DNA from: a virus
Taxonomy: Duplodnaviria > Caudoviricetes
Virus record (IMG/VR): IMGVR_UViG_3300013113_000858
Span: 796 to 64,795 of that record
Strand: one strand, 5' to 3'
Length of the DNA: 64,000 bases
The notes beneath the pieces are model-generated. The model saw only the letters and a program-made list of their open reading frames with translations, ran no database searches and was not told where the DNA came from. Made by a program: the position numbers and the translations under genes. This document shows positions 12,568 through 33,100 of this stretch, piece after piece (position 1 is the first letter of the stretch; each line of letters opens with the position of its first letter).

Positions 12568-12954
12568 ATGATTAAGGTTTGGGCAAATGGATGCTTTGAT
12601 GTTCTACATCGAGGCCACATTGAACTCTTCAGGTATGCAAAAAGCCTGGGAGATAAATTGGTAGTGGGAATAGACACTGATGAGAAAGTAAAAACAGACA
12701 AGGGGCCAACAAGACCATTTAATTGTTTAGAAGATCGAGTTTATTTGCTTGAGTCAATAAAATATATTGATGAAGTTCAAGTTTTCGGCAATAAAGAAGG
12801 GCTAGAATCATTGATTAGTTCATATAATCCAGATATCTTGGTAGTTGGTTCAGACTGGCGTGGAAAAGAAGTGGTTGGGCAACAATATGCAAAAACAGTA
12901 AAGTTTTTTGATAGGTTAGAAAAGTATTCTACAACAAAAATTTTGGATGGGTAA
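12568..12954 (+). CDS. hldC: Heptose-1-phosphate adenylyltransferase-like (RfaE/HldE domain II, standalone)
   Basis: NGCFDVLHRGH, KGPTRPFN, VGSDW and YSTT motifs; adjacent to the kinase and epimerase genes. Confidence 0.85.
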   Translation: MIKVWANGCFDVLHRGHIELFRYAKSLGDKLVVGIDTDEKVKTDKGPTRPFNCLEDRVYLLESIKYIDEVQVFGNKEGLESLISSYNPDILVVGSDWRGKEVVGQQYAKTVKFFDRLEKYSTTKILDG

Positions 12955-12957
12955 GAA

Positions 12958-13695
12958 ATGAAATTTTTAGTAATTGGAGACAGTTGTACAGATCGTTTTG
13001 TTTATGGTAGTTGTGACCGACTATGCCCCGAAGCACCAGTCCCAGTATTGAACCCAACACATGAGACAAAGAATGGTGGTATGGCGAAGAATGTTCAAAG
13101 AAACATAATTTCTCTTGGTGAGGATTGTCAAATTTTAACAAACCACAATGATATCATCAAAACTCGATATGTTGATAACAAAACTAACCAAATCTTATTA
13201 AGAGTTGATGAAAATGACAAGTGTGATAGTTTAAATAAGTTAGAATTATCTAAGCTCAAAAATTACGACGCGATTATAATTTCTGATTATAACAAGGGAT
13301 ATCTCTCAGAAGACACTATTAAGCACATCTGCGAAACTTATGAGAATGTTTTTATAGACACTAAGAAAAGAATGGGGGAGTGGATTAATTCTGCCTCTTT
13401 CATCAAGATAAACCAATATGAATACGAAAATAATAAAACTTATGTTGAGCAGAATTTAAATTTATTGAGTGATAAACTTATCATTACCTACGGAGACAAG
13501 GGGTGTTATTACAAGGGTAAAATGTACCCCCCACACAAGCACGTAGAGGTAAAAGATTTATCTGGAGCAGGAGATACATTCCTGGCATCTTTTGTGGTAC
13601 AATATATGAAAGAAAAGAAGACATTGGAAGCTATAGATTTTGCTCAAAAATGTTCTTCTGAAGTCGTTGGTAAAAAAGGGGTTGCAACAGTATAA
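12958..13695 (+). CDS. hldA: PfkB-family heptose-7-phosphate kinase-like (RfaE/HldE domain I, standalone)
   Basis: VIGDSCTD, RLCPEAPVPV, SDYNKG and DLSGAGDTF motifs. Confidence 0.85.
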   Translation: MKFLVIGDSCTDRFVYGSCDRLCPEAPVPVLNPTHETKNGGMAKNVQRNIISLGEDCQILTNHNDIIKTRYVDNKTNQILLRVDENDKCDSLNKLELSKLKNYDAIIISDYNKGYLSEDTIKHICETYENVFIDTKKRMGEWINSASFIKINQYEYENNKTYVEQNLNLLSDKLIITYGDKGCYYKGKMYPPHKHVEVKDLSGAGDTFLASFVVQYMKEKKTLEAIDFAQKCSSEVVGKKGVATV

Positions 13696-14558
13696 TGGGT
13701 TTGGGTGGTCATATGATGTGGACAGCAGTCGCAAGAGAGATTGTTGAAACATATAAAGAGCAGCATGGTGATTTTAAAATTTTACCAGTTTCTAATAATA
13801 CGCTTGTAAGGAGTGAAATATTCAAAAACAATCCTTATTTTACTTACAATCAAAAAGAGCCCCACTTTATAATGGATTTGTCAAACCCAGATACAAATTA
13901 TTGTATTAGAGAAGAGCCATACAGGGCAATTCATAGAAATGATAAACATGTTATAGAACAAGTATGTGAGTTTTATAAAATAGCAAACCCATCTCTAAAG
14001 TGTGAATTATACCTAACAGATGAAGAGAATGCAAAGGTCGATAATATATTGGAAGGTATTGGGGATTTTATAGCAATTGAACCACACGCTAAGAATAGCT
14101 ATACCGTAAATAAGGAATATTCATTCGAAAAATGGCAATCCGTAGTTGATTCACTAAAAGACGAAGTACAGTTTGTCCAAATCGGCGTTCCATCTAAGAA
14201 AACTTTAAAAAATGTAATAGATTTTACGGGAAAAACCTCGTACCGCGAGACTTACCGGGTAATTGAAAAGAGTTTATTATTTGTAGGAATTGAAGGAGGA
14301 TTGATGCACGTTGCAAATTCGTGCGGTAAGAAATCGGTGATCGTTGTCCCTGGATTTTTACATCCTGACACCTTTTGTTACCCAGAAAATATTAATATCC
14401 AGGTCTGCTCGTATTGTGAAAAAAATGGACCTTGCGGATACACTAGTAAAGTTTGCGACGATGGAAAAAATGAAGTAAAAAAACATAATGAAGATATCAT
14501 TGTTTCTTCTATAAGGGAGGTAATGAAAGAGAATGAAGGCATTAGTAACGGGTCATAA
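13695..14558 (+). CDS. GT9 (heptosyltransferase-like) glycosyltransferase
   Basis: KEYSFEKW, VQIG, IDFTGKTS and FVGIEGGLMHVA (D/ESGxMHxA) motifs; sits within the heptose genes. Confidence 0.75.
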   Translation: MGLGGHMMWTAVAREIVETYKEQHGDFKILPVSNNTLVRSEIFKNNPYFTYNQKEPHFIMDLSNPDTNYCIREEPYRAIHRNDKHVIEQVCEFYKIANPSLKCELYLTDEENAKVDNILEGIGDFIAIEPHAKNSYTVNKEYSFEKWQSVVDSLKDEVQFVQIGVPSKKTLKNVIDFTGKTSYRETYRVIEKSLLFVGIEGGLMHVANSCGKKSVIVVPGFLHPDTFCYPENINIQVCSYCEKNGPCGYTSKVCDDGKNEVKKHNEDIIVSSIREVMKENEGISNGS

Positions 14559-15324
14559 AGGTTTCATTGGCAGCAATGTTGTCAGTCGTTTAAGGGAATT
14601 GCAACATGAGTGTGTATGTTTTGACCAAGAAATATTAGAAGACGAGAGTCTTTTAGAAAAAGCAGTTAGCGAAGTCGATGTTGTCCTTCATATAGGAGCG
14701 ATATCTGACACTTCTTTACAAGATGAAGAACAGATGTTAAAACACAATTACCTTTTTAGTAAAAACTTGTTTAAGCTGTGTAAACAATATGATAAGAAGG
14801 TTATATATTCTTCATCAGCAGCAACATATGGCTCAACCGGAACACCTTCTAATATATATGGTTGGTCTAAACTCTTAGCAGAGGACATTGGGGCAGCAAT
14901 TTGTGATAAGTTTGTTTCTTTGAGGTATTTTAATGTTTATGGCCCCGGCGAAGAACATAAAGGAAAAATGGCTTCTGTAGCGTATCAATCTTGGAAGTCG
15001 AATGAAGTATTTAAGCTGTTTCCAAAAAAACCAAAAAGAGACTTTGTGTATGTAAAAGACATAGTTAGTGCCAACATCTCTGCAATTAATGCCCCTCCCG
15101 GTATTTATGAGGTCGGCAGTGGCGAGGCAAGAACATTTGAAGACGTTTTGGAAAATATGAAACTGGAGTATGAATACCACCCGGAGTCCAAGATACCTGA
15201 TTGGTATCAGTTTTATACAATGTCAAGTGAGAAAAATTGGATTCCATTTTGGAAACCGCAATATAATCTTGAGGCTGGAACAAAAGATTATTTGGAGTAT
15301 TTAAATGAAAAATCCCAAAGTTAG
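14533..15324 (+). CDS. hldD: ADP-L-glycero-D-manno-heptose 6-epimerase-like extended SDR
   Basis: TGHKGFIGS, HIGAISDT, YSSSAATYG, YGWSK, RYFNVYGPGEEHKGKMAS and RDFVYVKD motifs. Confidence 0.85.
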   Translation: MKALVTGHKGFIGSNVVSRLRELQHECVCFDQEILEDESLLEKAVSEVDVVLHIGAISDTSLQDEEQMLKHNYLFSKNLFKLCKQYDKKVIYSSSAATYGSTGTPSNIYGWSKLLAEDIGAAICDKFVSLRYFNVYGPGEEHKGKMASVAYQSWKSNEVFKLFPKKPKRDFVYVKDIVSANISAINAPPGIYEVGSGEARTFEDVLENMKLEYEYHPESKIPDWYQFYTMSSEKNWIPFWKPQYNLEAGTKDYLEYLNEKSQS

Positions 15325-16225
15325 TATTTTATCAAATTTTGTCAATGGACCATGGGGTGGTGGAAACCAATTCTTAAAAGCCTTGGCAACCCATTTACAC
15401 AATAAGGGAGTTTATACTCCGAATCTATTAGAAGCAGATATTGTAGTTGTTAACAGTAAAGATGAATTACAATATGTTGAAAGCCTTAAAAAAGAACATA
15501 ACAAAACTATTATTCACAGGGTTGATGGGGTGTTTAGTATTTATCGTGGACCAGAATGGTTGCACTTAGATCAACAAGTGTATTATTTTCTTAAAAACTT
15601 TGCTGATGGTGTGGTATATCAATCTAACTGGTCCAAAGTTCGACATAGGGATAACGGCTCGCCAAAGCACCCCAATGAATCTGTCATCTATAATGCTCCC
15701 GATTCGAGTATTTTTAATACAACCGATAAATCTCCAAGAAAAAACGGTGCAAAAACCAGATTAATAACAACCAGTTGGTCCCCAAATATGCGAAAAGGCT
15801 TTTCCACTATGCAATTTTTAGATGAAAACTTAGACTTTGATAGATATGAGTATGTTTTTGTAGGTCAAAGTCCTGTTAAATTTAAGAATATAGAGATGAT
15901 TGATGCGGTTCCATCAGAAAAGTTGGCAGAAATTATTAAAACGTGTGATATTTTTATAACCGCTTCTGAAAATGACACCTGCTCGAATTCTCTAATAGAA
16001 TCTATGAGTTGCGGACTGCCAGCAGTTGGATTGAATAGTGGTGGAACCCCAGAAATTATTAAAGAGGGCGGCAAAACTTTTACAGGGTGTGATGACATCT
16101 TGCAGGTAATTGATGATGTGTCAGAGAATTTACAAACTTACATAGATAAGATTTCAATTGAAACTTTTTCGGATATAGGAAAGCGATACTATAACTTTAT
16201 GAGGAAGGTTCATGGGGAAAAATAA
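15305..16225 (+). CDS. Glycosyltransferase, GT4-like
   Basis: GPWGGGNQF, HRVDG, RKG and DTCSNSLIESMSCGLP motifs. Confidence 0.83.
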   Translation: MKNPKVSILSNFVNGPWGGGNQFLKALATHLHNKGVYTPNLLEADIVVVNSKDELQYVESLKKEHNKTIIHRVDGVFSIYRGPEWLHLDQQVYYFLKNFADGVVYQSNWSKVRHRDNGSPKHPNESVIYNAPDSSIFNTTDKSPRKNGAKTRLITTSWSPNMRKGFSTMQFLDENLDFDRYEYVFVGQSPVKFKNIEMIDAVPSEKLAEIIKTCDIFITASENDTCSNSLIESMSCGLPAVGLNSGGTPEIIKEGGKTFTGCDDILQVIDDVSENLQTYIDKISIETFSDIGKRYYNFMRKVHGEK

Positions 16226-16934
16226 AATAAATATTAGTATAGATGATGTTTCTCCTCACCCACTTTCTTCTGTAAAGGTGTTGGATAGATGTTTTGAGCT
16301 TATTGAAGAATTTCCAGAAATAAAATTCACATTATTTATTCCATTTGCATACTGGAGAACATCATATGTTCCCGGCAGAGCCGATACAAGAAGCGAGAGA
16401 CCATTCGCACTACACAATTTCCCTGATTTTTGTAACACAATAAAGAGTTTACCTGCTAAAAACTTCGAGCTGGGTTATCACGGACTGTTCCATGGAATCC
16501 CAGGCCATTCAAACAATGATGAGTTTAAGCACTTGTCTTATGAAGATGCAGTAGAAACGCTAAAGAGAGTGAGAGAGGTCGAATCGAAATCAGGATTAGT
16601 GGGTAAATTTGCACCAATCTTTAGACCTCCGGCTTGGAAATTGTCTCCTGGTTCTTTTAAGGCTTGTAGTCAATTTGGAATTGAAATATTTGCTTTGTCT
16701 GAAGAAAAATATGCTTTGGATGTTTACAGTGGTGAACACCTGAATCACAAACATTTGTTTTTTGATTGTAGCCCCCCCAATTTTCCATTGCAGGTTAAAA
16801 AAACTAATGAAATCGTGTATCATGCATGTGAGTGGGACGTTAATTATTTAAACAAAGAAAAAACAAAAGATTTAAAAGACTTCATCTTATCACAAGGTGA
16901 GGTAAATTTTTGTTTTATGGAAGAGATGCTATAA
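16212..16934 (+). CDS. Polysaccharide deacetylase-like (CE4/DUF2334)
   Basis: ISIDDV, GYHGLFH and FRPPAW NodB-type motifs. Confidence 0.78.
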   Translation: MGKNKINISIDDVSPHPLSSVKVLDRCFELIEEFPEIKFTLFIPFAYWRTSYVPGRADTRSERPFALHNFPDFCNTIKSLPAKNFELGYHGLFHGIPGHSNNDEFKHLSYEDAVETLKRVREVESKSGLVGKFAPIFRPPAWKLSPGSFKACSQFGIEIFALSEEKYALDVYSGEHLNHKHLFFDCSPPNFPLQVKKTNEIVYHACEWDVNYLNKEKTKDLKDFILSQGEVNFCFMEEML

Positions 16935-17840
16935 ATGAATCATTTAGTAAAAACAGACATTTTTTTTGATCCTGATGTCTTGTATTTTTTAAAAAGTATA
17001 AGAGAATCAAGTGGGGAAAATTATTGGGAGGTCATTCAAGATGAGGAGAGTGGCCTGTGCTTTCTTTACGACCAAAGAAGGGGCTTGTATACCAATTATT
17101 ATAATTCACATCTAGTGGAAATGAGTGAATATGAAAAGATAAAAGATTTAAAAGAACGTATCATATCACTTAATCCTGCTGCGCAGGTCCAATTTCGAGT
17201 GTCATCAAATATTTTAGAAGAAGAGATAGATAAAGAACTAAAAGATAGCAGAAGAGAACTTGATTGGAGCAAAGAAGAAGATCCCGTGAACGTCATTGTG
17301 GGACTGGAAAACTTTTCATTAAAATCAATTAAGTCATCCAACCATAGGAAGAACATAAAAAAAGCCCAAAAGCTCGGCGTAAAATCAAAGTGCTATTACA
17401 GGGAACAAATTCCAGATCACATATTAAAAGAGTTTTATGACTGCTGTGTTACATCCCGGAAAAATATTGGAAAGAATTTTACACATAACCTTTCGTCTTT
17501 TTTAATCCGAGCCCAACTTTCTTTTATGGGTAAGGCAATCTTATGTAGGACAGAATACGAGGGTAAAGTATCTTATGTTTATGCCCTAGTCAGCGAAAAC
17601 AATGCTCTTTATTATGATTCCGGTTATAATAAGAAAGAAGATATCTTTACCGGACACTTCGCACAGTACAAGATTATGCAAAAAATTAAGTCACTTGGCG
17701 GGAAGTTTTATTCAATGGGGATTTTACCAGATAAGAAAAAGTATGAAATCGAGACCTTGGGTTCTGGAAAAACCACAGGTATGGAATACTATAAATATGG
17801 ATTTAGTAAACACTCCATTAAAGAATATATTGTGAGATAA
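16935..17840 (+). CDS. FemAB-like/GNAT acyl- or aminoacyl-transferase
   Basis: HRKNIKKAQKLGV, AQYKIMQKIKSLGGKFYSMG and GMEYYKYGF match the FemABX/GNAT C-terminal pattern. Confidence 0.6.
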   Translation: MNHLVKTDIFFDPDVLYFLKSIRESSGENYWEVIQDEESGLCFLYDQRRGLYTNYYNSHLVEMSEYEKIKDLKERIISLNPAAQVQFRVSSNILEEEIDKELKDSRRELDWSKEEDPVNVIVGLENFSLKSIKSSNHRKNIKKAQKLGVKSKCYYREQIPDHILKEFYDCCVTSRKNIGKNFTHNLSSFLIRAQLSFMGKAILCRTEYEGKVSYVYALVSENNALYYDSGYNKKEDIFTGHFAQYKIMQKIKSLGGKFYSMGILPDKKKYEIETLGSGKTTGMEYYKYGFSKHSIKEYIVR

Positions 17841-17844
17841 GATT

Positions 17845-18465
17845 ATGGGTAGTTCCAATAGGGTATTGTATGATAGTTTGTATTACCCAAACATAAAACC
17901 AGAAGGCGAAACCGCGCTGTTGGGTTTTCCAGATAATTCGGCTTTTAATGGTGATACTTTCGACCTATCTCTAGGTAATTGGGAGATTAATTCTGATTGG
18001 TCGTTAGGTAAAAAATATGATACCATCATATGTTTAAGAACAGCCTATTTCGCCAAAAACCCAGCCAAGTTTTTACAAAAATGTAGCGATCACTTAAATC
18101 CAAATGGGGTTGTGTATATTGATTGGGGTTTGGGAAATCACTGGAGGTATGATAATTATAAAATAGGCTGGGTCAAAGACGGGGAACATGAAGCAGCATA
18201 TTCAGATGATAATTATTTGTGGTCAACGGTTTGGGATTCGTCTTTAAAGAGTGATGGCTCCTTCCAAGCATTTGTTTTTATGTCTTCCAGGTTTGGGTAT
18301 GATATGGAAAATATTTTACAAGTTATTTACAAAGAAGTTCCTAGTGTGTTAAACTTTGCACAAGTTAAAAAAATTTTTGATGTTGAGATGTCTGATGCTA
18401 TAACATTAGAGCTTCCCCAAGGCCCATCTTATTATTTGTTTTTGAAATTGAGGAAAAAAAACTAG
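17845..18465 (+). CDS. Methyltransferase-like protein (divergent)
   Basis: KYDTIICLR and HLNPNGVVYID motifs; motif I is degenerate. Confidence 0.5.
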   Translation: MGSSNRVLYDSLYYPNIKPEGETALLGFPDNSAFNGDTFDLSLGNWEINSDWSLGKKYDTIICLRTAYFAKNPAKFLQKCSDHLNPNGVVYIDWGLGNHWRYDNYKIGWVKDGEHEAAYSDDNYLWSTVWDSSLKSDGSFQAFVFMSSRFGYDMENILQVIYKEVPSVLNFAQVKKIFDVEMSDAITLELPQGPSYYLFLKLRKKN

Positions 18466-18466
18466 T

Positions 18467-19516
18467 ATGTCCAAGAAAATCGGTTTTCTGGTGGACACTA
18501 TGACGGATTTCCGTTATTTTACTCCGCTAATAATGCAAATCAACTCTTTAAATGAGGGTCATGAATTCTTTCTAGATCTTTCTGCAAATCGTAGAAAGTA
18601 TAATGGCCTAGAAACAAACTCAAATATTAAAAATTGGATTATAGAGAATTTTTTAAATTATTGTACCGTTACTGATTCGAAAGTAGATTGCGATATTATG
18701 TTCTCAATTGAAGCAGTTCAATCAGTTTATGAACGAACCAACTCAAATGATGGGCATAGTTTTAATTATAAAAAGCATTATGCTATTCAACATGGTTTTG
18801 ACTGGATTAGAAGTAAATGGAATCTGGGTTATGCTTCTCCCGAATATAAAAAAGGTAGAGATTATAGCAAGACTTGTTATATGGCACATGATGAATTATA
18901 TGCAAATAGTATTAGAGAGTATGGAACTCCTACGGTTTGCCCACCAATCCCAGTAACTTCTTGGAATCTTTTACAACAATTGGATTATGCAAAGAGTTTA
19001 TCAAATTATAACCCTGAACTCCTAAAACCTTCATATTTTAATGATGATAAATTAGCCGTTGTCTTCTGGCCAGAAGCAAATTCTGACCAAAATGCCGCCG
19101 CAGAGCAGATAATAGATTGTCTATTTCAAAATGGATACAGAGTAGTCATTAAACAAAGGCGAAAACACCAAAATATACCTGCAAAATATAAAGAAATTGG
19201 ATTTTATGATGACGTTTGGTTCCCATCAGAATCAATCTTTTTTCCTCACTTAGCCAACGTTTGTATAGGGTTTGACACATCTGCATATGTTGATTTAGTT
19301 CCTGTAGGGGTAAATTTTATAGATAACTGTAAAACAGATATTGCCAAAACATATATCCGCCCAATCGAAAGAGAAAATTTCTACTTGATAGAGCATAGCT
19401 GGAAGGAAAACACAATAAACCTTATTAATACTAAAAAGTTTGAAAAACCTAAATTTAACGATCAGGATTACCTTTTTCGAATTAACAGTTTCCTAAAGAC
19501 AATTTTAGAAGTTTAG
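18467..19516 (+). CDS. Hypothetical protein, possible GT-B transferase for a CMP/CDP-activated donor
   Basis: AIQHG, VVIKQR and GFDTSA segments recall TagF/sialyltransferase-like folds; directly upstream of the nonulosonate genes. Confidence 0.4.
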   Translation: MSKKIGFLVDTMTDFRYFTPLIMQINSLNEGHEFFLDLSANRRKYNGLETNSNIKNWIIENFLNYCTVTDSKVDCDIMFSIEAVQSVYERTNSNDGHSFNYKKHYAIQHGFDWIRSKWNLGYASPEYKKGRDYSKTCYMAHDELYANSIREYGTPTVCPPIPVTSWNLLQQLDYAKSLSNYNPELLKPSYFNDDKLAVVFWPEANSDQNAAAEQIIDCLFQNGYRVVIKQRRKHQNIPAKYKEIGFYDDVWFPSESIFFPHLANVCIGFDTSAYVDLVPVGVNFIDNCKTDIAKTYIRPIERENFYLIEHSWKENTINLINTKKFEKPKFNDQDYLFRINSFLKTILEV

Positions 19517-19518
19517 AC

Positions 19519-19547
19519 TTGATTCTTATTTTTGACTATGTTATAAT
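19519..19547 (+). promoter_or_regulatory. Sigma70-type promoter
   Basis: TTGATT (19519-19524), 17 bp, TGtTATAAT (TATAAT 19542-19547), in the intergenic gap before the radical SAM gene. Confidence 0.65.
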
Positions 19548-19556
19548 TGCTATAAT

Positions 19557-21269
19557 TTGAAAATTTTAAATAACAAACCGAAATTACCGGTTCCAAGTGA
19601 AATTATTAAGAGTTTCAAAAAAGATTCTTTAAAGGGTGTAAAGATAACCTTTATTAATATGCCGTTGAGGGAAGCAGCAAAGCCAAATGTGCCACCCGAA
19701 GGTCCATCAATTTTAGCTGCTATTTGTAGAGAGCATGGTGCATCTCCGCATATCATTGACTTAAATGCTTATCGTATGAAGGATAAAGACTCCATTCTAC
19801 GCGACTTACCCAATGGTCGGCATTTAACCTATGCTGAAGCTGAGAATATGTTCTTGAGACACCTAGAGACTGCTGGAGATCAAGACGTTATAGCATTTTC
19901 GGGAAAAATTACAACTCTGCGGTGGCAAGAGCAAATGGCAAAAATAGTCAAAAAACACCAACCTGACTGTTTTCTAGTATCTGGAAATGGTCTTGCCACA
20001 GAAATGAAGTCGGGATTATTTAATTGGATACCAGAACTTGATGCGATTGGTAGATCTGAAGGTGATGACATTATCTTAATAATGTGTCATGACTCTAAAA
20101 TGATTAAACAATATGGATTAACTAGAGCAATTAACGGCGGCCATTTAAGCCCATATCACGTTGGCGAAGTCAATGGAAAATCTCGATTTATTTACCAAGG
20201 AGACAGACCAAAGAACCTTGATTCTTTACCTTACCCCGCATTTGACCTATTAGAAAGTGACCCATATGGGCATAATGTTTTAGAAGATTACATAAAAGTA
20301 CCAGTATGGGGGCTTGCAGCTAACAACAGCTCAGCGACCCCATTTACAATGGAAAGAAGCTTGACAACTGTTAGTAGCAGAGGATGTCCATATGCTTGCG
20401 CCTTTTGTTATCGCGGAGCCCAGGGTGAAAGAAATTATGGTATGCGTAGCAGTGAACATATTGCCCAACAAATTCGCAACTATGTAGATAAATATAATTT
20501 AGATTTTATTGGTTTTCCAGATGATAATTTCGCAGTAGATAAACGTAGAATCAAACGAATGATTCCTGTTTTTAAGAAGTACGGTCTTGATAAGGTTCGG
20601 TGGGGAACACATACGAGAATGGATGAGGCAGATGATCGTGCTTATGATATGGCAGAATCAGGATGCGTTTATATCGGTTTCGGAGCAGAATCAGCAGATG
20701 CAGAAACTTTAACAAATATGAAAAAAGGCGGCTTCATCCTCAAAAATGGTATGGAATCAGTTTCAGTAAATGGTTCTGTTTATGAATTCCCGGTTACGAT
20801 GATGAACGCTATAAAAAATTGTAAAAAAGCTGGCATTCACCCCAACTGTACTTGGATTATGGCTTATCCAGAGGAAAAACTACATAATTTGAAAACCTCT
20901 GTTGCCTTTATTTTGTGGCAACAAGAGTTCTGGTCACAAGGTCTAAACCCCACCACCACAGAATACCAATTAGCCCAAGACGCAGTTAACTCAAAAATGT
21001 TTACCGCAACAGCATATCCTGGAACAGAAATGTGGAAAGTTGTTCGTTCCGATTTAAAAAAACATTTTGATATCAATTTTGATGCAGATGGTAATCCAAT
21101 TTGCGATGATAATCTTCACAATTATGTTTTAGAGTTGGATGATGCAACAAAAATTTTAAATGATAAAGATGGCAATCCAGTTAATTTTGGTTCTATGAAA
21201 ATGGATGATTTCTTGCAAGCTCGCGAACATATCGACAATAATCAGATTGAAAAAATACTTGACATGTGA
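19557..21269 (+). CDS. Cobalamin-binding radical SAM enzyme (class B methyltransferase-like)
   Basis: N-terminal B12-binding-like region (PPEGPSILAA, IDLN, SEGD); SRGCPYACAFC (CxxxCxxC); DDNF, GAES and AYPGT motifs. Confidence 0.88.
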   Translation: MKILNNKPKLPVPSEIIKSFKKDSLKGVKITFINMPLREAAKPNVPPEGPSILAAICREHGASPHIIDLNAYRMKDKDSILRDLPNGRHLTYAEAENMFLRHLETAGDQDVIAFSGKITTLRWQEQMAKIVKKHQPDCFLVSGNGLATEMKSGLFNWIPELDAIGRSEGDDIILIMCHDSKMIKQYGLTRAINGGHLSPYHVGEVNGKSRFIYQGDRPKNLDSLPYPAFDLLESDPYGHNVLEDYIKVPVWGLAANNSSATPFTMERSLTTVSSRGCPYACAFCYRGAQGERNYGMRSSEHIAQQIRNYVDKYNLDFIGFPDDNFAVDKRRIKRMIPVFKKYGLDKVRWGTHTRMDEADDRAYDMAESGCVYIGFGAESADAETLTNMKKGGFILKNGMESVSVNGSVYEFPVTMMNAIKNCKKAGIHPNCTWIMAYPEEKLHNLKTSVAFILWQQEFWSQGLNPTTTEYQLAQDAVNSKMFTATAYPGTEMWKVVRSDLKKHFDINFDADGNPICDDNLHNYVLELDDATKILNDKDGNPVNFGSMKMDDFLQAREHIDNNQIEKILDM

Positions 21270-21275
21270 TAAAAT
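21247..21275 (+). promoter_or_regulatory. Sigma70-type promoter, near-leaderless to the ATG at 21284
   Basis: TTGAAA (21247-21252), 17 bp, TGaTAAAAT (TAAAAT 21270-21275). Confidence 0.55.
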
Positions 21276-21283
21276 ATTATCAT

Positions 21284-22057
21284 ATGAAAAAAGGTGTTTT
21301 TATATCTGTTCGTACAACTTCAACTAGATTACCCAACAAAGCCCTGATGAAAATTGGGAATCTTTCTACGATAGAGCATTTGATAAAAAGGGTAAAGAAA
21401 TCCACTAAAGCAGATCAAATAGTTTTATGCACAAGCGATCAACCAGAAGATAACACCTTGTCTGAATTGGCAAAAAAATGGGAGATAGGATGTTTCAGGG
21501 GAAGTTTAAAGGATAAACTTGATCGGTGGTACAAAGCAGCCGTCGCCTTTGACGTTGATTATTTTGTTAATGTAGATGGTGATGATATCTTTTGTGACCC
21601 CGAGCTTATTGATTTGGCGTTTGATCAATTTGAAAAAGAGGGGCATGATTTTGTAAAGTGCGATGAAGAGAATTTAGTTGTTGGTGCATTCACTTTTGGT
21701 GCAACAAGAAATACGCTAGAAAAAATTTGCGATATGAAAGATACAGATGACACGGAAGCCGCTTGGCTTTCATTTTCAGAACTAGACTTGTTTGATACAA
21801 GAATTTTGTCAAATGTTCCCAAAAAACTACAAAGACCAGACATTCGAGCAACGCTTGATTATCAAGAAGATTTTGAGTTTTTTAAAGCCGTTATAGAACA
21901 TTTTGAAGGTAATAATATAGAGGAATACTCATTGGGAGATATAGTTGAATACCTGGATTCAAATCCAGATATTATTGAAAGTAACCGATTATGTCAAGCA
22001 GCTTATTTACAGAATCAAAAAAAATTAACCAAACTTGTGTTAAAGGAAGAAGGATAA
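21284..22057 (+). CDS. Cytidylyltransferase, SpsF/KdsB/NeuA family (CMP-ulosonate synthetase-like)
   Basis: VRTTSTRLPNKAL, FRGS, VDGDD and TLDYQEDF motifs; start placed at the ATG at 21284. Confidence 0.83.
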   Translation: MKKGVFISVRTTSTRLPNKALMKIGNLSTIEHLIKRVKKSTKADQIVLCTSDQPEDNTLSELAKKWEIGCFRGSLKDKLDRWYKAAVAFDVDYFVNVDGDDIFCDPELIDLAFDQFEKEGHDFVKCDEENLVVGAFTFGATRNTLEKICDMKDTDDTEAAWLSFSELDLFDTRILSNVPKKLQRPDIRATLDYQEDFEFFKAVIEHFEGNNIEEYSLGDIVEYLDSNPDIIESNRLCQAAYLQNQKKLTKLVLKEEG

Positions 22058-22061
22058 AATA

Positions 22062-23276
22062 ATGAAAAACCCAACCAAATATTACGGAAAAGAGCTTGAA
22101 TATTTAAAGAAGGTTCTTGAGTCGGAAAACTGGACATCTACATCTGGAACTTGGAACCAGCTTTTGGAGTCAGAATTTTCAAAGAAGTTTGAATCTGATT
22201 ATGCAATCGCAATGAATTCAGGAACTTCCACCCTACACGCAGCACTGGTCGCGGTTGGTGTCAAACCAGGCGACGAAGTTATCTCACCGGCTCTAACGGT
22301 AATTATGGATACTTCCGCAACAATCCACGCTGGCGCAGTTCCAGTATATGCTGATATTGACCCCGAAACATTCAACATAGACCCAGATGATATAGAGAGA
22401 AAAATAACTTCAAAAACCAAAGCTATTATTATTGTACCGCTTTATGGTTTGCCTTGTAATATGGACAGGATTATGGAAATTTCTGAAAAATATAATATTC
22501 CAGTTATAGAGGATAATGCACAATGCTTTTTAAGTACCTATAAGGGTAAAAAGATCGGAACCTTTGGCGCACTTGCAAGCTATAGTTTTGAAAATTCAAA
22601 ACATATGTCCTGTGGAGAGGGTGGAATTCTTATAACCAACAATGAGGAATACGCCACAACAGCTCGAAAAGTTAGCAACCATGGGTTCAAAAACTCAACC
22701 GCTGTAAATGGTAGAATTAAATTAAACCTAAGTGATTATCAAAATCCAGATTATAAAAGACACGATGAAATTGGGTGGAATTATCGACTATCTGAATTCG
22801 GTGCAGCGATTGCTACAGCTCAATTAGAGAATCTTGAAAATATGGTAGACACCAGAATTGAAGCTTCGCTTCTATTTTTAAATGTGATTTCAGAAACCGA
22901 GTGTGAATATCTGATTCCTCAAAAAATAGATGAAGATGCAATAAATTCATTTTGGACATTCACAGTTGTTTATGAAGGCGAGGAGAAATTGGGAGTATCT
23001 TGGAAAGACTTCCGCGAAAAGTATGTTGAATTCGGTGGTGATGGAATATATTCAGCCTGGAGTGTTCCCTACTTGGAGCCTGTAATGGCCACTGGTGCTT
23101 TTGTCAAAACAAATCCTAAAATTTATAAGAAAACAAGATATGAGAAGGGGCTTTGTCCTGTCGCAGAAGAAATCCAACCAAAGATTATGCAATTTAAGAA
23201 CAACTACCGAGATCTTGAGCTTGCACAAACTAAAGCTGAAGCTCTAAGGAAAACAATTGAATTCTTTCGGAAATAA
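22062..23276 (+). CDS. DegT/DnrJ/EryC1/StrS PLP-dependent sugar aminotransferase
   Basis: NSGTSTLH, IEDNAQ, SFENSKHMSCGEGG (catalytic Lys) and GWNYRL motifs. Confidence 0.92.
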   Translation: MKNPTKYYGKELEYLKKVLESENWTSTSGTWNQLLESEFSKKFESDYAIAMNSGTSTLHAALVAVGVKPGDEVISPALTVIMDTSATIHAGAVPVYADIDPETFNIDPDDIERKITSKTKAIIIVPLYGLPCNMDRIMEISEKYNIPVIEDNAQCFLSTYKGKKIGTFGALASYSFENSKHMSCGEGGILITNNEEYATTARKVSNHGFKNSTAVNGRIKLNLSDYQNPDYKRHDEIGWNYRLSEFGAAIATAQLENLENMVDTRIEASLLFLNVISETECEYLIPQKIDEDAINSFWTFTVVYEGEEKLGVSWKDFREKYVEFGGDGIYSAWSVPYLEPVMATGAFVKTNPKIYKKTRYEKGLCPVAEEIQPKIMQFKNNYRDLELAQTKAEALRKTIEFFRK

Positions 23277-23279
23277 TCT

Positions 23280-23972
23280 ATGAAAAAAATTATTATAACA
23301 GGCTCTCGTGGCTTATTGGGAACTGAGATATCTTCTTTTTTGCGTTCAAAAAACTATGAGATCATAGAATGTGATTTGCAACTAGGTCATGATTTGACAG
23401 ATGAAAATTTTGTCAAAGAATTTTTTAAAAACAATCCGGCAGATGGATTGATTAATTTATATGCGTTAAACCCTCACGTTGATAAAAATGACGAGTCTAC
23501 GAATTTGTTTGACATTACACTAGAATCGTTGAATGCTTATTTGGAGGTAAATCTGTTGAGCCTATTTTCAGTATGTAGGGAATACGCTAGAAACAATAAG
23601 CAAGGATCAATTGTTAATTTTTCTTCAACCTATGGAATTGTTTCACCAAATCCTGCTTTATACGAAGAAAACAAAGAAAAGCACATTGGCTATTGCGTTT
23701 CAAAATCAGGTGTGGTACAATTAAGCAGATATTTGGCAGTGCATTTAGCACCAAATATTAGGGTTAATTGTGTGGCTCCGGGTGGAGTTACCTTTAAGCC
23801 AACAACTGAGCATAGTAAAAAGTTTATAAAACTATATGAAGAAAAAACCCCAATGAAAAGAATGATGAAGGTGGATGAGTTGAACGGTATGGTTAAGTTT
23901 CTGTGCTCTGACGAATCATCCTATGCAACAGGTGGTGTTTTCAACATAGACGGAGGATGGACCATATGGTAG
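23280..23972 (+). CDS. Short-chain dehydrogenase/reductase
   Basis: TGSRGLLG, SSTYG, YCVSK (YxxxK), RVNCVAPGG and DGGWT motifs. Confidence 0.9.
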   Translation: MKKIIITGSRGLLGTEISSFLRSKNYEIIECDLQLGHDLTDENFVKEFFKNNPADGLINLYALNPHVDKNDESTNLFDITLESLNAYLEVNLLSLFSVCREYARNNKQGSIVNFSSTYGIVSPNPALYEENKEKHIGYCVSKSGVVQLSRYLAVHLAPNIRVNCVAPGGVTFKPTTEHSKKFIKLYEEKTPMKRMMKVDELNGMVKFLCSDESSYATGGVFNIDGGWTIW

Positions 23973-24814
23973 ATTTTAACAATTTAGAAGAAGTATATTT
24001 CATTGGTGAGATTGGTATCAATCACAATGGAGATTTGCAGGTCGCAAAAAAATTAATTGATGCGGTGAATGCTTGCAATTGGGATTGTGCCAAATTTCAA
24101 AAACGCAATCCAGATGTTTGTGTTCCTGAACATCAAAAAGGGGTTATGAGGGAGACTCCCTGGGGCACAATGACCTATCTCGACTATAAATATAAGATTG
24201 AGTTTGGCCAAGATGAATTTGATAACATTCAAGAATATTGTGAATCCAAGCCATTAGATTGGACAGCTTCCGTTTGGGATTTAGATAGTTTGGAATTCTT
24301 AAAAGATTATAGGGTGCCTTTTATTAAAATCCCATCAGCTTTGATCACTAAAACAGAATTAGTCGAAGAATCAGCAAAATCCGGGGTTCAGGTAATAATG
24401 TCAACCGGTATGTCCACTCTTGAAGAAATCGATCAAGCAGTGAATATCATAATGAAGAACGGAAAAGATCCTATTATTATGCATACCAATTCTAGTTATC
24501 CAACACCACGAGATGAACTGAATCTAAACTTAATTCCGTTTTACAAGGAACGATATAACTGTACAATCGGTTATTCTGGGCATGAAGAAGATTTGGAGCC
24601 AACTGTCATCGCCGTAGCATTGGGTGCGAAAGTTGTAGAGAGACATATTACTTTATCTCACGAGATGTGGGGGACCGATCAAAAGGCAAGCCTAGAGGTG
24701 ATGGGGATGGATGCTTTGAAAAAACGATGCACAGACATTAATAAAATTTTAGGTTCCTCCGACAAAAAAGTTACAGAAAGTGAACTTCCAATTAGAAAAA
24801 AATTAAGAAGTTGA
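23966..24814 (+). CDS. neuB: NeuB-family nonulosonic acid synthase lacking the C-terminal SAF/AFP domain
   Basis: EIGINHNGD, KFQKR, KIPSA, STGMS, GYSGHE and ERHITL motifs; ends after the barrel at about 282 aa. Confidence 0.92.
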   Translation: MVDFNNLEEVYFIGEIGINHNGDLQVAKKLIDAVNACNWDCAKFQKRNPDVCVPEHQKGVMRETPWGTMTYLDYKYKIEFGQDEFDNIQEYCESKPLDWTASVWDLDSLEFLKDYRVPFIKIPSALITKTELVEESAKSGVQVIMSTGMSTLEEIDQAVNIIMKNGKDPIIMHTNSSYPTPRDELNLNLIPFYKERYNCTIGYSGHEEDLEPTVIAVALGAKVVERHITLSHEMWGTDQKASLEVMGMDALKKRCTDINKILGSSDKKVTESELPIRKKLRS

Positions 24815-24831
24815 TAAATCTATGATAAAAT
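24803..24831 (+). promoter_or_regulatory. Sigma70-type extended -10 promoter, near-leaderless to the ATG at 24840
   Basis: TTAAGA (24803-24808), 17 bp, TGaTAAAAT (TAAAAT 24826-24831). Confidence 0.45.
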
Positions 24832-24839
24832 AGGGAAAA

Positions 24840-25193
24840 ATGGATAACACTATAAAATATGTAGAAAAAGGTTGGGGGTTCGAAAAATGGATTGTTAACA
24901 AGCCTGCATATTGTGGAAAACTTTTATTCTTCCAAAGCGGTAAACGATGTTCATGGCATTTTCATAAGTTAAAAGACGAAGTATTTTACTTGCAATCTGG
25001 CCAAATCCTTGTGAAATATTCAGATGAAGACGAATATTGGCAAGCAAAAGAGATCATTTTAAATCCGGGAGACAATTTCCACGTTTATACAGGATTAAGA
25101 CATCAAATGATAGCATTAGAAGATTCCGAGTTGTTTGAGTTTTCAACTCAACACTTTGATAGTGATAGCTATAGATTAATGAAGGGTGATTAA
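24840..25193 (+). CDS. Cupin, sugar isomerase-like (mannose-6-phosphate isomerase/lyxose isomerase type)
   Basis: KGWGFE, SWHFHKLKDE, GLRH and EFST cupin metal motifs. Confidence 0.75.
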   Translation: MDNTIKYVEKGWGFEKWIVNKPAYCGKLLFFQSGKRCSWHFHKLKDEVFYLQSGQILVKYSDEDEYWQAKEIILNPGDNFHVYTGLRHQMIALEDSELFEFSTQHFDSDSYRLMKGD

Positions 25194-25526
25194 ATGATTA
25201 TATATGTTGATATTGATGAAACAATTTGCGAACATCCAAACACAGACCCTAGCGTTGCTAGAGATTATGAGAAGGCAATTCCAATATTTGAAAACATTAA
25301 TAAAATTAACAACCTATTTGATAACGGTGATACAATAATCTATTGGACAGCGCGTGGTGCAAATAGTGGTTTAAACTGGGGCGAAACAACAAAGAATCAA
25401 TTACAAAAGTGGGGAGCCAAACACACAGAGCTAAAGATGGGCAAGCCACACTACGATTTGTTCATTTGCGACAAGGCTATAAACACAGAGAGATATTTTC
25501 AGGAGAAGAATGATGAAGTTCGATAA
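25194..25526 (+). CDS. Capless HAD-superfamily phosphatase
   Basis: DIDETI (DxD), WTARG, MGKP and ICDKA motifs. Confidence 0.83.
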   Translation: MIIYVDIDETICEHPNTDPSVARDYEKAIPIFENINKINNLFDNGDTIIYWTARGANSGLNWGETTKNQLQKWGAKHTELKMGKPHYDLFICDKAINTERYFQEKNDEVR

Positions 25527-26208
25527 ATCTTGTATAAAAGAGTATTCTAAAACCGATGAAACTATTATTGAAGAAGTTCTTACACAAGACGTGTATGACT
25601 TTCAAAACTGGTCTCCCGTCCGACAACCTAAATTCATTGTAGATGTTGGTAGTCAAATTGGGTGCTTTTCCTTCATGGCTGCTCAATTGTACCCCGATGC
25701 TGAGGTTATCTCATACGAGTTAGACGGCGAAAATTATAATAAATCTATAACAAATTTAGAAGAATTTAAAAATGTTAAGGTTCGCAACAAAGCGGTAATA
25801 GGAAGAACCAAACCAGACGGCATTTGGGAATCTAATAGCACATATAATAGTAAGCCACTATTTAACACGGGTCATCCTTCAATAAATACAAATAATCCAT
25901 ATGGAAAACCGGGCGCACCAAAGCCACTAACTGTTGATTGTATAAATTTTGTTGAAATTTTTGATAAATTTAACATAGATTACATTGACTACCTCAAGAT
26001 AGACTGTGAGGGTAGTGAGTATGAAATTATACCATTTATGGAAGAAAACCTGTTATTGGAACGAGTTTTAACGATTGGTATGGAAATTCACGGTCCAACT
26101 GGGCAAGAAAAACTTACCAACACCTTAAAAAACAATTTTACGAACTTTAAACAAAACGGAAGTATTCTTTTATTTTCGAAGCAAGGAGAAAAATATGCAA
26201 ACTTATAA
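25510..26208 (+). CDS. FkbM-family methyltransferase
   Basis: VDVGSQIG, LKIDCEGSE and MEIH motifs. Confidence 0.88.
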   Translation: MMKFDKSCIKEYSKTDETIIEEVLTQDVYDFQNWSPVRQPKFIVDVGSQIGCFSFMAAQLYPDAEVISYELDGENYNKSITNLEEFKNVKVRNKAVIGRTKPDGIWESNSTYNSKPLFNTGHPSINTNNPYGKPGAPKPLTVDCINFVEIFDKFNIDYIDYLKIDCEGSEYEIIPFMEENLLLERVLTIGMEIHGPTGQEKLTNTLKNNFTNFKQNGSILLFSKQGEKYANL

Positions 26209-30125: not shown

Positions 30126-33100
30126 ATGGCAACCATCGACAAAAATAAAGATGTTAAACCTCTGGTTAGGATTGATTGGACACGCTCAAGTGTAGATGAA
30201 CCGTTTTTCCAAGAAACTGAAACCAAAAAAGTTTTAAACCTAGATACAACTCTTCCAAATCGTTATTCCATAAGGGTTGATACCGAATTCACAGATACTG
30301 GTGGCGAAGATTTAGCTGCAAGAATGGAAAGTGCTAAATATATTGGTGTTTCCAAAATACTGGAGTTTTATAATAAAAAACCTGGCGAAGCAGACATTGG
30401 CATAGCTGAGGATTGGTATCTACCAGAAAGACCAGGGTCGAAATTAAGAGTATTGGTATCCATATCAGAAGATAATGTGGATAAAAGGGAAGCCTTGCCG
30501 ATCCCTACAATATCTGAACTGCCAGCTCCTTGGGAAGAAATACAGTTTAGTACATTCAATTTAGATAAGAAGATAAAAAACATATCTGAACTTTTAAATA
30601 AATACAAAAAAGAACTGGATGATCTTCGCGGAAAAGCCATTGGAATAGATATAACCTTAGAATATAATAATTTACTTAATTTTACCCCATCTTTGACATC
30701 ACTCATGAGTTCTAACGGCTATGTTTACGACTCATCAAACTCAAACCTTCTAACGATGGGGATTGACAAAGACTATAATGTTCTTTATACAATGTTGAAT
30801 GATGGTAATGGGTATAACAATTTATATAACAAGTTTAACTTGTTTAAGAAAGCCCCCGCAATCAAAAATGATAGAACCATCTACTTTTTATCAAAATTAG
30901 ATGAATTAAACAAACTATCAAAAACAGATGATTATCCCTCGTTATCATCATTTTTTGATGAATATGTTTTAAATCCACCGATAATTGACTTCTCAAAGCC
31001 ACCACCACAAAGTTATGTTCCAGATGAAGAAGTTGACAGGATACACCAAGAGTGGTTAAAAGCAAGATTCCCTGGCCCAAAAACTCAAAAAGAACTAGAA
31101 GAGCAAAACAAAAAATTAGAGTCACAAAAAATGAAAGCAGAGCTTCAAAAACTGCTTGATAGTAAATCGGAATTTGTGAATGATTATTTAATCGGGTCGA
31201 TTGGTTCTTTGTCAGATGGAATGGCTTGGGTTGATGGAAAAATTGATTATGTTTTTGACAACCTATTAAACAAATTTCCAATCCAAAATCTTATAACGTC
31301 AGCACTTGAGTGTCTAGGGTTCAGAGGAACAGAATTTTGGGCCATTTCTAAACAGTTTTTAAACAATGCAGAGATGTTTTTAAAGGACTCCAACAGATTA
31401 TTTGATTTACCATTACAAAACTTCCCAGATGATTTTCCAATTGTAAATTATATGAAAGATATTGGAATTAAAATTTTAAACGGTATGCTGGAAGCCATCG
31501 TACAAACATTAATTAAGATGGTTATGATGGTTTTGGAAGCTCTTTTAGACTTTTGTTCCGGTTGTGTTGGTCCCGGTGGCTCAAATTTTGCATTCGGCAA
31601 GCTAAACCTAGGAGATTTAACCGCCAAACTCGGAGCAGAATTTGCCATGGGTGTTGTTGGTGCTGTGGATAATGGCCTACAACAATCAGGAGTAAAACAA
31701 TTAAGTGCAGAGGTTGTAGAGCAAACAAACCAATGGGCAAAAAATCCAGTTTTACTACCAGGCGAAAAGAATGCAGTTAGTTTAATAACGAAAGAATCGG
31801 GAGAATCAGAAGAGTTAAACAAAGAAGATTTACAGCAACAAGCATCCCAGATGAAGGTAATATCTGCCAAAAAAGAAATGAGTAAGTTTTTGGATGCAGC
31901 ATCAGCAGTTTTAACACCTGGTGAAGCTGGCAACCTCTTGCTTGGGTGTAACGTCGGTAATGAACCGGTCAATGCAATTAGAAATTTGTTAGATAATTTT
32001 CCAGCAATTAAAGCTGTGATGGCCCCCAATGACATAAAAGACAGTGATATCAAGTCTTGGTTTAAAACTTTTGGAGATTTAGTTTCCGCACCAGCAATTT
32101 TATCTACAATTGCAGACGTTAACGACTCTCTTCCTGAACAATTTCGGTGTCTGTGTGATGAAGATGAATCAAATCTGAGAGCAGATCTGTTAAATAATCG
32201 AGCAACTCGCTCACAGATTGAAGAACAATTAGAAAAGTCAAAAGACAGAAGGGAAAAAGAGTTAAAAGACTTGGCAGACTTGTTAAATAAAGGAAACTTT
32301 ATGGACAATGTTCTTCCATCAATTTACTGCTCTAAGAATCCTGATGGAACAATTAAGCCAGGATTGATTGAGAATGATCACCCAAGCATGTCTTTTATGA
32401 TGGATAGCGTTCTCGATACGGTTTATGACAACATAGCTTTATCTTACAATCAGGATGTTGCGGGATTAATTCCGTCCATGATGGTGACTTCGCTTGGAGA
32501 AGAAGAGGTACAGAGAACAAACCGAGTAAATGTTCCAAATATTGGCTGGACACGAGTTTTAAATCCGAGATTTGTTGAATTGGTAAACCAAGGCGTTTAT
32601 TCATATGGTTCAGTTTCACACGATGCAATAAACCCAGGATTTTCTGGAAACCAAAATAAAGTATTTCCAGATGGTAGAACAGTGGATCAAAGAGGTCATC
32701 GCGGCTGGGCACAAGAAGAAGGTAAGTGGTTTGGGCTCGGCGGTGGTACTCCTGCCGACGCTGAACTTCAATACCCACACAACGCAGGACAATGGGATGC
32801 AGGCCAAACAAGACCAACCGGAGAACAAGAATACCAATGGGAAATCGCTCAATTAGCTGATGCTGCAATAAACAACACTCAAGCAGGTAGATATTCGTTA
32901 GACTTCAGATACAATGGTTCAAGATTCCCGACTAATGGAGAAATGACCGCGAAGTTTGGATATTCCCCAGTTCCAGTAAAAGCTTCTAAAAATTTAGGTA
33001 AAGAGTTCATTCCTGGTCTCAAAGATTCGTTTGAGAATTTTTGTAGCGGAAATAATTTAGAAATTTTTGATCGAGAGCAGTTTCATATTTACGGTTTCAA

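Follow-up and report, generated by a model that had tools for sequence, protein, structure and literature searches.

We analysed a 64,000-nt window of the IMG/VR virus record IMGVR_UViG_3300013113_000858 (positions 796 to 64,795 of the record), in which the genes at 19557-26208, among them one for a short NeuB-family synthase, form a putative sugar-biosynthesis cassette. The window has a G+C content of 31-40% and covers nearly all of the record, which comprises 64,795 bases without terminal repeats and was estimated by CheckV to be about 36% complete. The 31 records with DNA similarity to it are all from cyanomyophages or marine single-cell viruses. Its phage genes include those for PhoH, a PD-(D/E)XK nuclease, a gp25 baseplate wedge, a late-sigma-like protein and an M15 peptidase, and we interpret the record as part of the genome of a T4-like marine myovirus with affinity to the Kyanoviridae. 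All genes between 4170 and 26208 lie on the + strand and are glycan-related. This 22-kb glycosyltransferase island contains four GT4, one GT2 and one GT9 enzyme, several methyltransferases, a split HldE, an HldD-like epimerase and the NeuB block.

A first-pass annotation made from the sequence letters had listed a radical SAM enzyme, a cytidylyltransferase, a DegT aminotransferase, a short-chain dehydrogenase/reductase (SDR), NeuB, a cupin and a haloacid dehalogenase-type (HAD) phosphatase in a row. All seven genes were recovered at the expected positions on the + strand, tightly packed and without internal stops (Table 1), and the catalytic motifs of the cassette enzymes are intact as judged from the sequence, the mapping of NeuB residues and an alignment of the HAD protein. 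The radical SAM protein carries the CxxxCxxC motif (SSRGCPYACAFC); its match to the B12-binding domain model (PF02310) is weak (19.7 bits, cut-off 32.1) and every NCBIfam subfamily stays far under its cut-off (best Sden_1168, 69.4 vs 575). For the cytidylyltransferase, the sole NCBIfam matches are KdsB models (≤59.5 bits vs 193), and its best solved relative is 6OEW, annotated as a cytidylyltransferase (92.5 bits), with KdsB structures matching as well. The DegT protein reached 216 bits against the LegC family (cut-off 420) and 199 against PseC (423.5), and the SDR 120 bits against PRK09186 (255). An Asp closing strand beta2 of the SDR (IIECD) suggests a preference for NAD. The FkbM-family methyltransferase gene at the end of the cassette overlaps the HAD gene by 17 nt.

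Table 1. Cassette genes and other features of the glycan island. Coordinates refer to the window; scores are in bits.
Feature	Position	Strand	Length	Evidence
Heptose genes: adenylyltransferase, kinase, GT9 heptosyltransferase, HldD-like epimerase	12568..15324	+		profile matches
Split HldE, adenylyltransferase part	12568..12954	+		
Split HldE, kinase part	12958..13695	+		
FemAB/Acetyltransf_6-like protein	16935..17840	+		Atlas feature score 0.95; no Pfam match
GT-B-fold protein, no named family	18467..19516	+	349 aa	structure model; sits where relatives carry a GT29-like transferase of ~210 aa
Sigma-70-like promoter match	19519..19547	+		TTGATT, 17 nt, TATAAT with TG; 10/12 positions
B12-binding-type radical SAM enzyme	19557..21269	+	570 aa	PF04055 Radical_SAM, 55.1
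CMP-ulosonate synthetase-like cytidylyltransferase	21266..22057	+	263 aa	CTP_transf_3 PF02348, 78.8
DegT-family pyridoxal-phosphate aminotransferase	22062..23276	+	404 aa	DegT, 274; SFENSK...GEGG lysine motif
Classical SDR oxidoreductase	23280..23972	+	230 aa	SDR, 113; TGSRGLLG and YxxxK motifs
SAF-less NeuB-family PEP-condensing synthase	23957..24814	+	285 aa	NeuB domain at residues 33-269, 225.7
Metal-binding cupin	24840..25193	+		Cupin_2, 32.3
Minimal HAD phosphatase	25194..25526	+	110 aa	four HAD motifs; match to PDB 9IQW
FkbM-family methyltransferase	25510..26208	+		Pfam, 36.7; TIGR01444, 68.6 (cut-off 37.7)

The NeuB protein stops 16 residues past the NeuB domain, and SAF (PF08666) had no match in the six frames of the whole record, which bears out the missing SAF domain noticed in the first-pass annotation. 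In NmNeuB, according to the available text of PMC8208679, R314 in the SAF domain binds the N-acetyl group of the sugar. Without a SAF domain, the window enzyme has no Arg314, the residue that in NmNeuB contacts the N-acetyl moiety of N-acetylmannosamine (ManNAc). It scored 228 bits against TIGR03569 NeuB_NnaB, the NeuB/LegI model (cut-off 399.65), and 167.1 bits against the PseI model TIGR03586 (cut-off 340.25). The best solved relative is 6NCS, a 290-aa protein without SAF; 6NCS and 6OEW are both presumably Leptospira entries. Residues were mapped through an alignment with NmNeuB (2WQP) onto 54 members of the surrounding clade, here called NeuB-short. The equivalents of E25, K53, Q55, K129, S132, S154, Y186, S213, H215, E234, H236 and D247 are conserved in at least 53 of the 54 proteins, the position of F112 is a Trp in all of them, and the window enzyme has the metal ligands H215 and H236 together with the phosphoenolpyruvate (PEP)-binding and catalytic residues of NmNeuB. 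The KFQKR...TPWG segment that had been singled out in the first-pass annotation proved to belong to a conserved, clade-specific loop after strand 2 (KFQKR..P..QK..R(D/E)TPWG.M.Y..YK..EF), which is rich in basic residues and shared by phages, bacteria and archaea. The clade comprises at least 8000 protein clusters at E ≤ 1e-20, of which the best 120 are all 281-303 aa long, and spans archaea, bacteria of the candidate phyla radiation (CPR), Bacteroidales, Lachnospiraceae, Omnitrophota and marine phages. SAF-less NeuB proteins are frequent in environmental bacteria according to a survey whose available text gives no function for them (PMC8208679). In the literature, supplements not included, we found no work that addresses what SAF-less NeuB proteins do or that treats the cassette in phages, and no publication on the enzymology of the cassette.

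The genomic neighbourhood of NeuB-short was compared across 35 cellular loci (from Methanoregula, Neomarinimicrobiota, Patescibacteria, Omnitrophota, Bacteroidales, Lachnospiraceae, Planctomycetia and others), 18 viral loci and two stretches of GenBank phages. One cellular locus (L038) holds only a NeuB fragment and was omitted from the count; the tally covers the 55 loci whose NeuB-short reaches 40% identity or more (34 cellular, 21 viral). Each count is a minimum, since many contigs end early and several loci span only 1.5-4 kb. A CTP_transf_3 cytidylyltransferase was present in 42/55 loci and a HAD phosphatase of any type in 39/55; the latter was of the KdsC type in 21 loci, all of them cellular (21/34), and of the 110-aa type in 18 (15/21 viral, 3/34 cellular). 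DegT was found in 25 loci and an SDR of the window's type in 22, followed by B12-type radical SAM (12), SPASM radical SAM (11), class III aminotransferase (8), iron-dependent alcohol dehydrogenase (Fe-ADH; 7) and cupin (4). The window DegT is 58-65% identical to its module partners in Bacteroidales, Omnitrophota and Lachnospiraceae, and orthologues of the radical SAM enzyme with 70-74% identity occupy the same position in four loci (L039, L041, L043 and L044). The module of CMP-transferase, DegT, SDR, NeuB and small HAD is kept in Marine virus AG-345-L05 (34-47% identity) and in many IMG/VR contigs. Since NeuB-short is nearly always accompanied by a HAD phosphatase and a CMP-transferase, the context fits a phosphorylated intermediate like that of 2-keto-3-deoxynononic acid (Kdn) synthesis. 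The CMP-transferase is even fused to a KdsC-type HAD in L010 and L024, and the Kdn-type core of NeuB, HAD and CMP-transferase proposed in the first-pass annotation gains support from these data.

The second idea in that annotation, that the SDR and DegT oxidise and then aminate a hydroxyl, is likewise favoured by the context, in which an oxidoreductase is paired with DegT. A CPR locus (L021, Staskawiczbacteria) encodes at 4522-6783, beside NeuB-short, a 753-aa fusion of an N-terminal DegT with a C-terminal Fe-ADH. A class IV aminotransferase takes the place of DegT in L041, L043 and L044, and a SPASM radical SAM enzyme that of the SDR in Lachnospiraceae and some Omnitrophota loci. Because non-homologous enzymes swap at the same step, what is conserved is a chemical scheme, namely condensation, dephosphorylation, oxidation, transamination and CMP-activation, rather than one set of families.

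Taken together, the region 19557-26208 is best explained as the phage copy of a widespread, uncharacterised cassette predicted from its genes to make a CMP-activated, amino-substituted 3-deoxy-2-ulosonic acid, i.e. a sialic-acid-like sugar; we assign this reading a probability of roughly 0.6. We infer the following order of steps. The SAF-less NeuB would join PEP to an aldose phosphate, for which mannose-6-phosphate is the simplest candidate, giving an acid resembling Kdn-9-phosphate, from which the 110-aa HAD would take off the phosphate. The NAD-type SDR would then oxidise a hydroxyl, DegT would transaminate the resulting carbonyl, and the cytidylyltransferase would turn the product into its CMP-sugar. 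Of the route proposed in the first-pass annotation, the phosphorylated core and the oxidise-then-aminate pair are well supported by gene context, and the role given to the cupin is not.

Amination might also come first: SDR and DegT would make an amino-sugar phosphate that NeuB condenses with PEP, giving a neuraminic-like (5-amino) or a 7-amino acid. In the NtdC/NtdA/NtdB pathway, kanosamine-6-phosphate is made in this manner by NtdC and NtdA, and NtdA, a DegT protein acting on a sugar phosphate, is among the solved relatives of the window DegT (118 bits). HAD and CMP-transferase as partners fit this order equally well. Pointing the other way, the CMP-transferase is fused to DegT in L017 and the near-identical L046-48, and the two genes follow each other in the order CMP-transferase, DegT in at least 10 loci, as would suit transamination and activation as adjoining late steps; furthermore, the DegT-Fe-ADH fusion points to a primary alcohol as the group oxidised, and such a group becomes available only once the phosphate is gone. 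These observations are not decisive, and we consider an amination-first order unlikely.

The product could also have eight carbons. NeuB-short would then replace KdsA and start from arabinose-5-phosphate, yielding a Kdo-like amino sugar analogous to Kdo8N, the 8-amino form of 3-deoxy-octulosonic acid (Kdo). Such a route would explain that the window CMP-transferase matches only KdsB models and, besides 6OEW, KdsB structures, that the partner phosphatase of cellular loci is of the KdsC/YrbI type, and that Fe-ADH and DegT recall the pairing of KdnB and KdnA. Against it, the matches to KdsB are weak, the phosphatase of Kdn-9-phosphate is of the KdsC type, too (3E81 was matched), the characterised NeuB-family synthases in the available text of the papers cited here all give 9-carbon acids, and the enzyme of Prymnesium parvum is described there as rejecting arabinose-5-phosphate (PMC6200933). 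We therefore give an 8-carbon product only a slim chance.

The first-pass annotation had assigned to the cupin the supply of the hexose phosphate, which our comparison does not bear out: it accompanies NeuB-short in only 4/55 loci and is probably a gene of the cyanophage heptose cassette. It matches phrog_7851 (E 6e-58; family label 'cysteine dioxygenase'), and the small HAD matches phrog_1238 (E 1.3e-22; family label 'phosphoheptose isomerase'). In P-TIM68, P-SSM2 and S-SSM7, genes of these two kinds are grouped with those for heptose adenylyltransferase, kinase and epimerase (five-gene sets at L058 3062-5680, L059 4871-6664 and L060 3929-6703), and Synechococcus phage Bellamy has them in a related sugar set, which also encodes a kinase, a nucleotidyltransferase, two epimerases and, immediately 5' of the small HAD, a class II aldolase (L057 4312-5210). 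The window proteins are 60-68% (cupin) and 41-59% (small HAD) identical to the products of the cyanophage heptose-cassette genes. None of these four phages is among the 3 records of the phage collection in which tblastn found a NeuB match. The five-gene set has neither a SIS-type GmhA nor a GmhB, so the cupin is likely the isomerase, standing in for GmhA, and the small HAD likely the phosphatase of the ADP-heptose pathway, as far as gene content tells.

The heptose genes of the window score 113.9 (rfaE_dom_II), 134 (rfaE_dom_I) and 196.8 bits (heptose_epim), all under the equivalog cut-offs, and have no isomerase or phosphatase of their own, the cupin and HAD being the only candidates. The window thus shares with the cyanomyophage heptose cassette (T4-GC 304-308) the same cupin, small HAD, adenylyltransferase, kinase and epimerase, but differs in that cupin and HAD follow NeuB directly and are separated by about 9.5 kb from the remaining heptose genes. 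In the loci with the closest NeuB relatives (L039 and L041), HAD follows NeuB with no cupin in between. Most likely, the cupin is a heptose gene that landed between NeuB and HAD and would serve the ADP-heptose pathway; a phosphomannose isomerase-like activity supplying mannose-6-phosphate is possible, though the module does not need it. The structure model of the cupin (predicted local distance difference test, pLDDT, 69.0) had no Foldseek match at E ≤ 0.001, its weak matches mix HppE, D-lyxose isomerase and KdgF, and no PDB sequence matched the protein below E 0.029; at the level of the predicted fold, isomerase and oxygenase are not separated.

The small HAD has no Pfam or NCBIfam match. Its motifs DIDET, TARG, KP and D are kept in at least 90% of 24 homologues and agree with motifs I-IV of the HAD superfamily, and among solved structures it matches PDB 9IQW (E 2.8e-6), annotated as a 'capsule biosynthesis protein' of 134 aa. 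No literature was found on 9IQW or 7B0M. The gene adjoins NeuB-short in 15 of the 24 homologues used for a HAD tree, in which the window copy groups with NeuB-adjacent copies, and it abuts NeuB-short in loci that have no cupin or heptose genes in the flanks examined (among them L039, L040, L041, L045, L049, L053 and L056). A probable role is that of a ulosonate-phosphate phosphatase, and possibly it acts as heptose bisphosphate phosphatase as well. As a general phage sugar-phosphate phosphatase it may serve both pathways here. In T-even-like phages it lies beside genes annotated as thymidylate synthase/kinase (L061 3986-4360, Escherichia phage WG01; L062 3962-4357, Acinetobacter phage KARL-1), and in KARL-1 also near a gene annotated as arabinose-5-phosphate isomerase; in these phages it may act in a sugar pathway for DNA modification. 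One viral contig (L040, 8849-10129) encodes a cytidylyltransferase-PEP mutase fusion directly after NeuB-short, which suggests a phosphonate decoration in that phage.

The first-pass annotation had seen no NeuC epimerase and no PseB- or LegB-type dehydratase in the window, and profile searches confirmed this for the record, about 36% complete as it is: Epimerase_2, the family of NeuC, had no match, PseB reached 17.4 bits (cut-off 407.75) and LegB 45.8 bits (cut-off 475), the latter on the heptose-epimerase-like open reading frame (ORF). The same annotation had counted the presence of these genes elsewhere in the genome among the signs against its reading. Two relatives with complete genomes, G001 (186 kb, terminal repeats present) and G002 (203 kb), also possess the cassette, and this sign was not seen in them: there was no Epimerase_2 match in either, and the best scores were 39.9 bits for PseB and 118 bits for LegB, against the same cut-offs. 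Both share with the window the genes downstream of the cassette, and the island therefore occupies a conserved place in this phage lineage.

These searches bear on the view that the sugar is ordinary legionaminic, pseudaminic or N-acetylneuraminic acid (Leg, Pse or Neu), with the phage giving the late steps, the host or the remaining 64% of the genome giving dehydratase, acetyltransferase and hydrolysing epimerase, and HAD and cupin serving heptose synthesis only. The best NCBIfam models are indeed NeuB/LegI, LegC and PseC, the record is incomplete, HAD and cupin are heptose-cassette genes in cyanophages, and a divergent 2-epimerase might be encoded by the GT-B-fold ORF that precedes the radical SAM gene. 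Yet the NCBIfam scores are about half of the curated cut-offs, the synthase has no SAF domain, the same NeuB clade keeps KdsC-type phosphatases in 21/34 cellular loci, and NeuB and small HAD abut where cupin and heptose genes are missing from the flanks examined. In addition, the complete relatives have no NeuC and nothing at equivalog level for PseB or LegB, and the SDR is a classical protein of 230 aa and not an extended 4,6-dehydratase. An ordinary Leg, Pse or Neu pathway is improbable on these grounds.

Several observations weigh against the proposed Kdn-like route to an amino sugar. Both the substrate and the product of the NeuB-short clade are deduced from gene context alone, and the position of E134 is variable among the 54 clade members (L in 16, T, K and H in 9 each, M in 5). 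The NCBIfam matches of the CMP-transferase, all of them weak and to KdsB models, still allow an 8-carbon product. With respect to the phosphatase, tblastn with the small HAD matched 378 phage records, mostly T4-like phages without NeuB such as coliphages and Acinetobacter phages, and the gene sits in the heptose cassettes of P-SSM2, S-SSM7 and P-TIM68; it is therefore shared and not NeuB-specific. The group that holds the window copy in the HAD tree has a support of only 92/89 and includes Bellamy, with no NeuB in the stretch examined, in a poorly resolved tree (3 of 19 inner branches starred). KdnA (5K8B) ranks 11th for the window DegT, with 144.6 bits compared to 190 for the top match, and KdnB (5K8C) ranks 36th for the Fe-ADH of L004 with 65 bits; judged by sequence, KdnA and KdnB are family-level relatives and the likeness to Kdo8N synthesis is one of logic, not of orthology. 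Finally, no CMP-sugar transferase was identified in the window, where the GT29-like gene of about 210 aa that related phages carry is absent (nothing below E 0.1).

A transferase, perhaps the GT-B-fold ORF upstream of the cassette, would add the sugar to a surface glycan of phage or host that the other genes of the island make. This ORF has no Pfam or PHROG match and 4 close homologues, and some distant relatives have borderline Epimerase_2 and Glyphos_transf matches. Its model (pLDDT 61.5) gave 42 Foldseek matches at E ≤ 0.001, among them GT4 enzymes, TarL, UDP-GlcNAc 2-epimerases and a sialyltransferase. The modelled fold thus appears to be a generic GT-B fold, common to 2-epimerases, and the protein may be a transferase or a 2-epimerase. 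Profile comparison with the GT29-like family of about 210 aa and with the Capsule_synth protein of L004 yielded no match (probability below 1%). In related phages, the protein of about 210 aa is weakly linked to GT29-like ORFs of a 484-kb phage. This uncultured phage (LR756508; L003 8253-13074) encodes four GT29 (eukaryote-type sialyltransferase) ORFs of 210-249 aa, grouped with a GIY-YIG ORF, NeuB-short and the small HAD, with a GDP-mannose dehydratase adjacent.

The B12-type radical SAM enzyme, a putative tailoring enzyme, and the FkbM methyltransferase would modify the sugar, methylation being a guess. FkbM has no homologue among the 54 other NeuB-short loci and is a candidate tailoring enzyme specific to the window. 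Upstream of the GT-B-fold ORF, at 16212-18465, lie a DUF2334 (deacetylase-like) ORF, the FemAB/Acetyltransf_6-like ORF and a weakly methyltransferase-like ORF, which may tailor the amino sugar; N-acylation by the FemAB-like protein is possible and should be taken as a lead only. By analogy, one may tentatively picture an undescribed sugar: a Kdn-derived nonulosonic acid with a freed side-chain hydroxyl (e.g. at C9, as the analogy to Kdo8N would have it) oxidised and aminated, C-methylated by the B12 radical SAM enzyme and maybe N-acylated by the FemAB-like protein and O-methylated by FkbM. It would be made during infection to decorate the particle or remodel the host surface, and the same core chemistry would run across many uncultivated bacterial and archaeal phyla. 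We offer this full structure as a possibility with the odds somewhat against it.

The sigma-70-like promoter match lies in the 40-nt gap that precedes the radical SAM gene. Sites resembling promoters are no more frequent in this region than in shuffled sequences (52 vs a mean of 49.2), hence only the placement of this match carries weight, and it is suggestive. The T4 late-promoter word TATAAATA had 11 matches where 6.4 were expected, which is uninformative, and upstream of the cassette genes it was found only within ORFs. Elsewhere in the window, two giant ORFs (30126-37844 and 41615-51265; 2572 and 3216 aa) that match no Pfam family flank the gp25 baseplate gene; presumably they are virion or fibre proteins and as such possible targets of glycosylation. 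An ORF at 2368-3060 (230 aa) has a sub-threshold PF07737 match (22.6 bits vs 27.4), which is probably due to chance or to a distant metalloprotease-like fold.

If the proposed pathway holds, it is a fourth major route to sialic-acid-like sugars beside Neu, Leg/Pse and Kdn. It would start at a sugar phosphate and install nitrogen late, and therefore need neither a nucleotide-sugar dehydratase nor a hydrolysing epimerase. Members of the NeuB-short clade are now mislabelled as N-acetylneuraminate synthase in genome annotation, and the cyanophage labels 'phosphoheptose isomerase' for the small HAD and 'cysteine dioxygenase' for the cupin both look wrong. The pathway would also bring a defined and testable case to an old problem of phage biology, namely what large lipopolysaccharide ('LPS') gene islands are for in marine T4-like phages (PMC1079782).

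Compared with canonical NeuB, LegI and PseI enzymes (NmNeuB; 1XUU, 2WQP), the window synthase shares the TIM-barrel NeuB domain and the catalytic residues, and differs in lacking SAF and R314, in not keeping E134, in the Trp at the position of F112 and in the conserved basic loop after strand 2. The closest biochemical parallel to the proposed core is the CMP-Kdn pathway of Bacteroides thetaiotaomicron (synthase BT1714, phosphatase BT1713) and P. parvum, which likewise combines a NeuB-family synthase, a HAD phosphatase and a CMP-transferase; in the available text of PMC6200933, a NeuB-type synthase acts on mannose-6-phosphate via Kdn-9-phosphate, followed by a phosphatase and a CMP-synthetase. 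By analogy, this combination of enzymes would imply a sugar-6-phosphate substrate and a 9-phosphate product for the cassette, too. The window cassette differs by its aminotransferase, oxidoreductase and radical SAM enzyme, which have no counterpart in the Kdn pathway, and by its phosphatase, which is of the 110-aa phage type and not of the KdsC/C0 type.

A cluster in Leptospira interrogans for nonulosonic acid (NulO) synthesis similarly brings together a synthase, a phosphatase, an aminotransferase and a CMP-synthetase. In the available text of PMC3438082, the NulO synthase is extended at its C-terminus by a domain interpreted there as a phosphatase, and a phosphorylated route is proposed. The gene table of that paper lists the fusion next to an aminotransferase and a CMP-synthetase, the accession numbers being consecutive. 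The product proposed there is N-acetylneuraminic acid (Neu5Ac), and that text contains no enzymology.

The logic of late amination has its parallel in Kdo8N synthesis, in which an ulosonate phosphate is made and dephosphorylated, a hydroxyl is oxidised and transaminated and the product is CMP-activated. In Shewanella oneidensis this pathway, reportedly the subject of work by Gattis et al. in 2013, is said to use KdsA, KdsC, the oxidase KdnB, the transaminase KdnA and KdsB. The resemblance extends to the Fe-ADH and DegT pairs, one of them fused, that stand beside NeuB-short in 7/55 loci. According to the available text of PMC5125639, KdnB opens the Kdo8N pathway as its Kdo 8-oxidase. The window cassette departs from the Kdo8N pathway in that its synthase is of the NeuB and not of the KdsA type and in that its oxidase is an SDR.

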